Below are positions 1 through 18,681 of a stretch of DNA of 27,849 nucleotides, one piece after another. The stretch spans positions 1-27,849 of the forward strand of contig CAYFXC010000024.1 in NCBI GenBank assembly GCA_964347045.1, read 5' to 3'. Source of the DNA: an uncultured archaeon (lineage in GTDB: Archaea > Asgardarchaeota > Hermodarchaeia > Hermodarchaeales > Hermodarchaeaceae). The notes below the pieces were generated by a model. It searched no databases, was not told the DNA's origin, and saw nothing but the letters and a program-made list of their open reading frames with translations. Made by a program: the position numbers and the translations under genes. Each line of letters begins with the position of its first letter. Within the stretch, counting starts at the first letter, position 1.

Positions 1-398
1 GTCTCGAACATGATCTCGGCCATCTTTTCACGATTGGCCCGAGGGTTCAAGGGGGCTTCGGTTAAGAGGATGGGGTGTTCGGTGGGGTCGATGCGTAAGT
101 CGTTGTAGAAGGTGTAGTGCCAGATTTTTTCCATGGCGGGCCAGTCGGTGATTTGGCCGTGGGCGATGGGGTAGACGAGTTTGAGGACGCCGCGGAGTTG
201 GAGGGCTTCTTCGCCGATGTAGTATTCGCGGGTGTAGTGTTCGACGTCGGTCATGTAGGCAGGATACTTGGGGTAGCCGATGAGCGTGGGGAACACGCTG
301 CGTGGCTGGTCTTCACCGGCGTAGCCGTTTTTGCTAAGGCCGGTGCCGTTGTCAACCACCAAGGGTTTGGCGGTGACCATTTCTTCTTCAGTTGCCAT
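1..398 (-). CDS. Actin (Asgard Lokiactin-type), 5' part; runs off the left edge of the window
   Basis: Manual translation from ATG at 398: [133 protein letters not shown]. It contains the actin phosphate-1 loop DNGTG, YPIxHG, MEKIWHxTFYNxLR and the [16 protein letters not shown] signature. SD-like AAGGAGAUGA lies upstream. Confidence 0.98.
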
Positions 399-17243: not shown

Positions 17244-17636
17244 TTAATCTTGGGCTTGATGAAGATAGTAGATGACGCCGATGCAAAGAAGCCCTGTTAG
17301 GAGCGCGTGAAGCCAGCTGAATCCAATGAACGCAATAACGATAACAATGATTAAGAAAATGATTAGCTCAAACCAACCGGCGGTTTCCCCGTAATATTCT
17401 CGAAGGTTGCCGAAGAGCACGACTAGCCCAATGAATGCTAGTACGAGGAGTAAAATCGCTATCACGCCCGTAACTACAGGACCAATAAAGTCAAGAAAGA
17501 CTCCAATGGGATCCAAGCGCGAGATCATTAATGCCATAAGAATGCTAAAGAAGGCGATAGCTGCTGTACTAATGATCATACTGCGACGCATGAATTGTCT
17601 ATCTCGAGACCTATCTTTGGACATCGCTCGTAGCAA
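17244..17636 (-). CDS. Small four-TM membrane protein of unknown function
   Basis: Four hydrophobic segments and a basic N-terminus; probable ATG at 17624 with GAGGT upstream. Confidence 0.75.
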   Translation of the reverse strand: MLRAMSKDRSRDRQFMRRSMIISTAAIAFFSILMALMISRLDPIGVFLDFIGPVVTGVIAILLLVLAFIGLVVLFGNLREYYGETAGWFELIIFLIIVIVIAFIGFSWLHALLTGLLCIGVIYYLHQAQD

Positions 17637-17711
17637 CCTCTTGTCATGCCGCTTGAGATGCGAAAACTCAAAAGGTGAGGAGCTTTTAAGTCTTTGGCTG
17701 TGGGTTCACGT

Positions 17712-18149
17712 ATGACTTCGCCCCGCGTCGCTCGAATACAGTTGACATCGTTGCACCGACGACAATTATATGGAATTCGTCGACGGGCGATGCCCAATGA
17801 GGGGTGTGCAATACTTCTTGGAACTTATAGCAAAGATGGTTTAGTCGCTCGAGTCGTACGCGTCGCTGAAACCGAAAACATAGCCCAATCGAGCGCGGCT
17901 TTTGAGATTGATGCAGAACACCAATATTGTATCCTCACTGCAGCAGCAGAGGAGGGGCTGGAACAAGTCGGGATTTATCATTCTCATCCAACGTCTCCGG
18001 AACCATCAGGCAGTGATTTGGAATTTATGAAATACAATCCCTGCGTTTGGGTTATCGATGGTAAACGAAATAATCGGTTTCGAATGAGAGCTTTTCAGCT
18101 GTGGAAAGGATTTCTAATTTCAGTTGAAATTCTTACAGTACCACCGTAA
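17712..18149 (+). CDS. JAB1/MPN/Mov34 (JAMM) metalloprotease
   Basis: NEGCAILLG (catalytic Glu) and YHSHPTSPEPSGSD (HxH-x7-S-xx-D). ATG 17712 preferred over TTG 17694. Confidence 0.92.
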   Translation: MTSPRVARIQLTSLHRRQLYGIRRRAMPNEGCAILLGTYSKDGLVARVVRVAETENIAQSSAAFEIDAEHQYCILTAAAEEGLEQVGIYHSHPTSPEPSGSDLEFMKYNPCVWVIDGKRNNRFRMRAFQLWKGFLISVEILTVPP

Positions 18150-18158
18150 AAAGAAGAG
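18148..18158 (-). terminator. Pyrimidine/U-rich terminator-like tract after the C/D sRNA
   Basis: Minus-strand CTCTTCTTTTT immediately 3' of the sRNA terminal stem. Confidence 0.45.
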
Positions 18159-18161
18159 GCG

Positions 18162-18234
18162 GGGGCTCTCGGCTCGTCGCGAGATCGTCATAGCACAAGG
18201 CTCAGTTTGGAGCGGCGTGGCTTCACTGAACCCC
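18162..18234 (-). ncRNA. Box C/D 2'-O-methylation guide sRNA (dual guide)
   Basis: 5'-GGGGUUC A [GUGAAGC, box C] CACGCCGCUCCAAA [CUGA, D'] GC CUUGU GC U [AUGACGA, C'] UCUCGCGACGAG [CCGA, D] GAGCCCC-3'. It has a 7-bp terminal stem, two k-turns with 3-nt bulges (AGU, UAU), and 14- and 12-nt guides complementary to conserved 23S rRNA motifs. Confidence 0.85.
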
Positions 18235-18324
18235 GGAGACTCTGTTAGCAAGGCGAGTTTTATCTGTTTTGGCACATGAAGTAGAGCTCCTAAAGAAACT
18301 GAATAGTTAGATTGATCAGATATA

Positions 18325-18681
18325 CTATCGGTATTTGCGGACTCGGATTACTCCTCGGGCTTCGATATCAGGTAGATGCGTTAGTGCTTTTCGAAGTGTA
18401 CCACTTATTCCAACAACATGAAAAAGAAGGGGGTTCGAATCCATCTGTGTAATTGTTGCTAAGGCAGCTCGGAGCGGGCGAACCTCCGTGTGTTGGCAAC
18501 GAATAATGGCACTCTTTTGTTTAGGATGATATGATATTAGCCAAAAACCAATTCGGCTGACTCCCATCTCTCCATATAATTCTTGCAACTGCTGCCAGAT
18601 AGCATTTCGGAAGTTGGATTCAGAAGGGAGTTTCTTGGAAGTGTGAACCCGAATTGCGAGATATCGTTGACGAGAACGCAT
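18325..18681 (-). CDS. rnp2: RNase P protein component 2 (Pop5/Rpp14)
   Basis: RQRYL, LYGEMG, IIRC and VVGISGTLRKA motifs. Confidence 0.95.
   Translation of the reverse strand: MRSRQRYLAIRVHTSKKLPSESNFRNAIWQQLQELYGEMGVSRIGFWLISYHPKQKSAIIRCQHTEVRPLRAALATITQMDSNPLLFHVVGISGTLRKALTHLPDIEARGVIRVRKYR

Follow-up and report, generated by a model that had tools for sequence, protein, structure and literature searches.

The window, by which we mean the whole stretch of 27,849 nucleotides that was analysed, opens with a fragment of an actin-family gene, the Pfam match of which (window 3-398, E 8.9e-38) is Asgard-like and agrees with the assignment of this DNA to an Asgard archaeon, made in the original prediction from the letters alone. 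The subject of this report is a 73-nt unit on the minus strand, 18162-18234, with its 5′ end at 18234. It lies on the strand of pop5, at a distance of 90 nt downstream of this gene, after a string of genes for a dehydrogenase, eL15, a PF01877 protein, Rpp30 and Pop5; beyond it come a JAB gene on the opposite strand, a 130-aa ORF, and the genes for PsmA, SBDS and Rrp4. This neighbourhood is the known archaeal superoperon of exosome, proteasome and RNase P genes. Two genes separate pop5 from psmA: a Prok-JAB/JAMM gene at 17694-18149 on the plus strand, whose stop overlaps the T-rich tail of the 73-nt unit, and the ORF of 130 aa at 17244-17636 on the minus strand, which is without a Pfam match. 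The adjacency to pop5 recurs in one genome of another family (G039, family f12), where the unit is 6 nt downstream of the gene, and in G025 (f8) the unit lies next to psmA; neither was seen in G021, G047 and G056.

The unit has the layout of a box C/D sRNA, with the boxes in the order C, D′, C′, D and a terminal stem that brings its ends together (all coordinates of the unit refer to the minus strand). The two strands of the stem, 18228-18234 on the 5′ side and 18162-18168 on the 3′ side, form 7 bp that are paired in 100% of the cells of 15 sequences and are kept in the MFE fold. Variation in this stem is limited to a one-sided change from U-G to C-G, found in 4 of the 15 sequences; double-sided covariation is absent within the alignment of the window's own family (f1), the members of which are too alike. 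Box C (18220-18226) is the variant GUGAAGC, invariant in f1 and aligned with the canonical RUGAUGA-type boxes of other families. Next comes the spacer of the D′ guide (18206-18219), whose positions 3-11, counted from box D′, pair with 23S rRNA 2249-2257, and whose 9-nt core is invariant in f1; the spacer is 14 nt long in the window, 13 nt in the sister genus and 12 nt, the usual length, in other families. Box D′ is CUGA (18202-18205; CCGA in G008), and a linker of 10 nt (18192-18201), which forms a short hairpin of 2 bp here and of 3 bp in the sister genus, leads to box C′, AUGACGA (18185-18191), recognized from its sequence and from the f1 alignment. The 12-nt spacer of the D guide (18173-18184) follows, which is able to pair with helix 89 or helix 93 and is invariant in f1 at positions 2-11, and the unit closes with box D, here the variant CCGA (18169-18172). 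The GA of box D is invariant, and its first two letters vary, being CC, CA or UG in f1 and CU, UU, AU or CA in other families.

How good are the k-turns? The original prediction called both of them ideal. The GA dinucleotides that both k-turns need are there, the 7-bp stem directly adjoins boxes C and D, and the internal CUGA and AUGACGA, 10 nt apart, provide for a second k-turn or k-loop. Nevertheless, the word ideal overstates the case: box C departs from RUGAUGA at 2 positions and box D from CUGA at 1, and as a result the 3b-3n pair is A-C and not U-U. The pair between G6 of box C and C1 of box D is retained, as GC in 14 sequences and as GU in 1. Conservation of the boxes in relatives, on which the original prediction had staked its case, is seen in these same GA dinucleotides, which are invariant in all homologues. 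Taken with the box layout, the stem and the conservation described below, this bears out the identification of the unit as a box C/D sRNA. The energy of the MFE fold is ordinary when compared with shuffled sequences (z -0.71), and such unremarkable stability is normal for the class. Rfam at gathering thresholds gave no match over the window; near the sRNA site the best C/D model reached 13.5 bits against a cut-off of 70, and a scan at an E-value threshold returned nothing useful. ARAGORN found no tRNA in the window. A string resembling a tRNA T-arm (a run of G followed by TTCGAATCC) does occur at 18428-18444 on the plus strand, within the pop5 ORF of the opposite strand, and is probably there by chance.

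Another question is whether the sRNA depends on the transcripts of its neighbours. The ribosome-biogenesis operon in which it had originally been placed is recognizable as the RNase P/proteasome/exosome superoperon, but the sRNA also has a conserved promoter-like motif of its own. This motif, of the BRE/TATA type, occupies 18258-18273 on the minus strand and is near-invariant in all of the 16 loci that were aligned from two genera, in contrast to the 23 nt between motif and sRNA, which vary; its position and type of sequence suggest the role of a promoter. The centre of the TATA-like part lies ∼27 nt upstream of the 5′ end of the sRNA (18234), which is the usual distance from an archaeal TATA box to the start of transcription, so that transcription of the sRNA probably begins independently, at the first G of the stem or close to it. 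The segment 18235-18290 on the minus strand consequently looks like the promoter of the sRNA rather than a 5′ domain of the RNA. On the other side, directly downstream, there is a T-rich tract (18148-18155, minus strand, 7 T of 8) that may act as an archaeal terminator, and pyrimidine-rich tails trail the sRNA in relatives too. A scan for terminators of the bacterial type found nothing. Looked for in sequencing runs, the locus turned up in the probable source metagenome (X1) and in no RNA run.

With regard to its distribution, BLAST places the element in 13/14 genomes of the same genus, and the sister genus has it too. The 73 nt are ∼91% identical in the alignments, both flanks diverge right at the ends of the stem, and both guide cores are invariant in the alignment of near relatives (f1). 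More distant homologues were collected with two covariance models, R1, built on the window's family, and R2, built on the hits of R1 in other families. R1 recovers the same two-guide RNA in other families, and R2, in the search across Asgard genomes that the original prediction had proposed as a check, has matches with E <= 0.01 in 90 of the 151 genomes sampled from the phylum, a count that includes some unrelated C/D sRNAs at its weak end; the match in G055 (f9), for instance, has different guides. Both guide cores are recognizable in at least 17 families (30 sequences inspected). Among the genomes that carry the family are complete ones, e.g., G056, G053, G039 and G042. Judged from these alignments, the sRNA is conserved across much of the Asgard archaea. 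Some candidates were discarded along the way: the R1 matches in G023 and G024, with E of about 1-10, are not homologues, and three weak matches among 121 genomes of Thermoplasmatota are unrelated C/D sRNAs, the guides of which are different and do not match helix 89 or helix 93 of the 23S rRNA in their own genomes. A scan of contigs with a pattern of the two cores was too loose and returned chance matches in GC-rich bacterial sequence.

The rRNA to which the guides are compared has to come from relatives, because neither a 23S nor a 16S rRNA is assembled in the window's genome, which is 88.9% complete. ARAGORN calls only 19 tRNAs in it, one of them with an implausible span of 1.9 kb, and its RNA gene content is thus incomplete. 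The 23S targets were taken from two genomes of the same genus (G006 and G008) and from 19 others, 21 in total, and the E. coli numbering used throughout was verified with the help of an annotated 23S rRNA from E. coli (L192:735-3638). There, the P-loop motif falls at 2249-2256, the helix 93 motif at 2591-2600 and the helix 89 strand at 2455-2467, the last aligning with the archaeal sequences without indels. Both motifs that the original prediction had taken from consensus, those of the P-loop and of helix 93, are correct on the E. coli molecule and are both present in the 23S rRNA of G006 and G008 as well. The complementarity of at least 9 bp on which that prediction depended is likewise found when the 23S rRNA of the same genus is used, as a 9-bp pairing for G2251 and a 10-bp one for U2593, both in the N+5 register. 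The 23S rRNAs of the relatives have a peculiarity of their own in domain V: between the P-loop and helix 93, that of G006 (L031) carries ∼147 extra nt and that of G008 (L032) ∼1 kb, and in G056 (L195), G029 (L005) and G126 (L200) the sequence leaves the conserved one right after 2600-2601, beside the helix 93 site. These insertions and departures look like rRNA introns.

Are such matches meaningful? When the guides were shuffled 300 times and compared with the 16S and 23S rRNA of the same genus, the best match of the real guide was equalled in 21% of the shuffles for D′ and in 14% for D. The complementarity between guide and target in a single genome is not beyond chance, and the support for the targets therefore rests on the comparison between genomes. 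What does exceed chance is the sharp-edged conservation in 13/14 genomes of the genus, the spread through the phylum, and the covariation of guide and target. Among the 19 tRNAs, the best candidate target was a 9-bp run at the acceptor end of a tRNA-Leu whose call is odd; it was set aside, being without comparative support.

For the D′ guide, the comparison gives a simple answer. On the 23S rRNA of the same genus, positions 3-11 of the guide pair with 2249-2257 in 9 bp, including one G-U at 2252, and G2251 is at position 5. The same site is the top match of each genome's own D′ guide on its own 23S rRNA in 17/21 genomes, and the four exceptions carry an internal mismatch. Two compensatory changes accompany this pairing: family f4 has U2257 with A in the guide, where the others have C2257 with G, and G110 has U2254 with A in the guide, where the others have C2254 with G. 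The distance from the core to box D′ is constant in nearly all lineages, which leaves G2251 at position 5. Another candidate site, near nucleotide 80 of the 23S rRNA (10 bp, two of them G-U, in G006), was dismissed, as it is complementary only in f1. The prediction that the D′ guide targets G2251 of the P-loop by the N+5 rule, leading to Gm2251, has thus stood up and is well supported by the comparison of genomes.

The duplex with the P-loop is never perfect. It contains exactly one wobble or mismatch in 21/21 genomes, at a site that differs by lineage (alignment A3) and that is either an A-C at 2254 or a G-U at one of 2251, 2252, 2253 and 2256. The G-U wobble of the window's family adjoins the pair made by G2251, and work on archaeal sRNPs in vitro indicates that a wobble next to the target pair may lower the efficiency. 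As a guess, the weak spot may ease the release of the product.

The D guide is less straightforward, and it fits two places since the two rRNA strands resemble each other. On the 23S rRNA of the same genus, positions 2-11 pair with the 5′ strand of helix 89 (2457-2466) in 10 bp with one G-U, placing U2460 at position 5, and positions 3-12 pair with helix 93 (2591-2600), again in 10 bp with one G-U, placing U2593 at position 5. Only the second had been foreseen in the original prediction, which gave Um2593 as the product; the 10-bp match and its N+5 register are real, but the changes that the guide has undergone follow helix 89 and break the pairing with helix 93 in several lineages. U2460 is the top match of the genome's own D guide in 15/21 genomes and is tied with helix 93 in 2 more. 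A guide with U at position 7 is confined to genomes with A2462 (4/4), and one with A at position 3 to genomes with U2458 (6/6); each of the three f4 genomes with U2463 has A at position 8. In G029, G019/G030, G053 and G042 the U at position 10 has become C, which allows a G-C pair at 2465 and no longer matches A2598 in helix 93. Invariance in f1 extends over positions 2-11 of the guide, and these are exactly the positions that pair with helix 89. In the solved structures of archaeal C/D RNPs, the duplex of guide and substrate comprises ∼10 bp at positions 2-11, which would favour helix 89 here.

Helix 89 cannot be the sole site everywhere, because three genomes do not fit: a G-G mismatch lies beside U2460 in G110, where the pairing with helix 93 is a perfect 9 bp, and an A-C mismatch interrupts the pairing with helix 89 in G024 and G069, where position 8 fits helix 93. 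In addition, the spacer between C′ and D is 13-14 nt long in G056, G035, G053 and G025 (alignment A3), and the N+5 rule would there shift to 2459 or 2458. The simplest reading of these comparisons is that U2460 in helix 89 is the main conserved predicted target of the D guide, and that U2593 in helix 93 may serve as an additional site in many lineages, that of the window among them.

Collectively, these data make it likely, in our judgement, that the element is a dual-guide archaeal C/D sRNA, transcribed independently, that guides the modification of G2251 and U2460, with U2593 in helix 93 as a further possible site. The course of events that we propose builds on what could be seen directly, namely the architecture, the conservation, the complementarity, the covariation of guide and target, and the genes for fibrillarin (303.9 bits) and Nop5 (227.8 bits), which lie side by side elsewhere in the same genome, on contig C1. 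The sRNA would be transcribed from its own promoter and would assemble with L7Ae, Nop5 and fibrillarin, and the resulting RNP would pair with domain V of the nascent 23S rRNA. The D′ guide would settle on the P-loop (helix 80), with G2251 in the fifth place from box D′, to give Gm2251; the D guide would settle on the 5′ strand of helix 89, with U2460 in the fifth place from box D, and direct its methylation. In the window's family the same D guide could also pair with helix 93, with U2593 at position 5.

Could helix 93 instead be the true target of the D guide, with Um2593 as the product and the match to helix 89 as an incidental one? We regard this as unlikely, although it is not without merits. 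Apart from the 10-bp pairing in the same genus, helix 93 is the top match in G025, G110 and G024 and is first or second in 13/21 genomes; position 10 of the guide is U in most lineages, which is a Watson-Crick partner only for A2598, and the A at position 8 in G024 and G069 suits U2596 and not C2463. A site at U2867 in the numbering of Dennis et al. 2015, which is about E. coli U2593, is moreover a predicted archaeal one. Against this, the score of helix 93 falls to 4.5-6.5 (rank 6 to 32) in G029, G019/G030, G053, G042 and G114, where that of helix 89 is 8.5-10.5 (rank 1). The changes at positions 3 and 7 can be understood only with respect to helix 89, since C2591 and G2595 do not vary, and the conserved A at position 2 has a partner in U2457, whereas in the register of helix 93 it is opposite C2590. 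A different proposal, and one to which we give slightly less credence, concerns not the site but the function: the sRNA would be mainly a folding chaperone that holds the strands of helix 80 and of helix 89 and/or 93 of the PTC during assembly, with little or no transfer of methyl groups. The wobble or mismatch that each lineage keeps in the P-loop duplex, the fit of a single guide to two helices and the degenerate boxes in f1 would all be in keeping with such a role, and it has been proposed for archaeal sRNAs with distant targets (PMC4644070). Yet a pure chaperone would have no need for the constant distance from the core to box D′, which keeps G2251 at position 5 in nearly all lineages; furthermore, G2251 is methylated in all three domains of life (PMC11542601), and the genome has a gene for fibrillarin.

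The most radical objection is that the element is no guide RNA at all, and that it belongs either to the end of the pop5 operon, as a conserved 3′ UTR or terminator, or to a small ORF. Its position downstream of pop5 on the same strand, at 90 nt here and at 6 nt in G039, invites this thought, as do two overlapping frames of 51 aa, at 18120-18275 on the minus strand and at 18124-18279 on the plus strand. We consider it very improbable: the same RNA is found in unrelated neighbourhoods in other families, its conservation ends at the stem while the flanks, which would be parts of the ORF, diverge, and its ordinary fold energy is expected of a C/D sRNA and not of a structured terminator. Nor would it explain the covariation of guide and target. 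Perhaps, finally, the functions of guide and chaperone are combined: one guide is kept fit for both helix 89 and helix 93 across the phylum, its partner works on an imperfect duplex with the P-loop, and the RNP is at once a chaperone of three PTC strands and a methylase. To us, this combination is conceivable but rather doubtful, and the dual-guide sRNA directed at G2251 and U2460 is the reading that we prefer.

What does such an RNA add? The family brings a well-supported, phylum-wide C/D sRNA to the Asgard archaea, for which no catalogue of this kind was found: the reviews PMC8339473 and PMC7994747 contain no Asgard C/D sRNA, and a search of the literature turned up no Asgard catalogue. In these archaea, which are the closest to eukaryotes, it predicts Gm2251 and Um2460, and perhaps Um2593 as well, all within the catalytic core of the ribosome. 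In terms of method, it offers an example of how covariation across genomes can pick out the real target where the matches in a single genome are not significant, and it also exemplifies how one guide may serve two similar rRNA strands. The general understanding of how box C/D guides work is unchanged by it.

The archaeal box C/D sRNAs described from Pyrococcus, Sulfolobus, Pyrobaculum and the like (Dennis et al. 2015, PMC4644070; Breuer et al. 2021, PMC7994747) are of the same general kind as the one in the window, with a common size class, the order C, D′, C′, D, a terminal stem, spacers of ∼12 nt and two guides, and their targets are likewise in the domain V hotspot around the PTC. The sRNA of the window differs from them in having no Rfam family, in its non-canonical boxes C and D, in its 14-nt D′ spacer and in its Asgard host. 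As for the P-loop, a guanosine methylated or predicted to be methylated with the help of an archaeal sRNA is already in the literature (PMC11542601, PMC4644070). The makers of Gm2251 and its equivalents, as tabulated in PMC11542601, are RlmB in E. coli, aFib with an sRNA for Gm1950 in Haloarcula marismortui, and snoRNPs for Gm2619 in yeast and Gm4196 in human; the sRNA of the window is predicted to act on this same, universally conserved guanosine. Dennis et al. 2015 (PMC4644070) described domain V as a hotspot and predicted sRNA-guided methylation of the equivalent of G2251 in three archaea. In those archaea, the partners of the P-loop guides are directed to nearby sites (e.g., U2544 and G2490 in their numbering), whereas the partner in the window is directed to helix 89 and helix 93.

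A parallel for this second guide is also available. In the alignment of Dennis et al. 2015 (PMC4644070), Crenarchaeota and methanogens have a very similar helix 89 strand, and the offsets between the pan-archaeal numbering of that paper and the numbering of E. coli (their G2520 is E. coli G2251, and their C2880 is E. coli C2606) allow sites to be carried over. The supplementary table of the same paper lists an sRNA, sR17, with U2734 and U2867 of the 23S rRNA, which are about E. coli U2460 and U2593, i.e., the same pair of sites in helix 89 and helix 93 as in the window; the figure labels P17/T17 suggest, without certainty, that its species are Thermoproteales. The likeness is one of listed sites, and it stops at the partner guide, which in sR17 is listed for G2768/G2920 and not for the P-loop. 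The sRNA of the window would thus share with sR17 the choice of the helix 89 and helix 93 sites, and with the P-loop guides of other archaea the choice of G2251.
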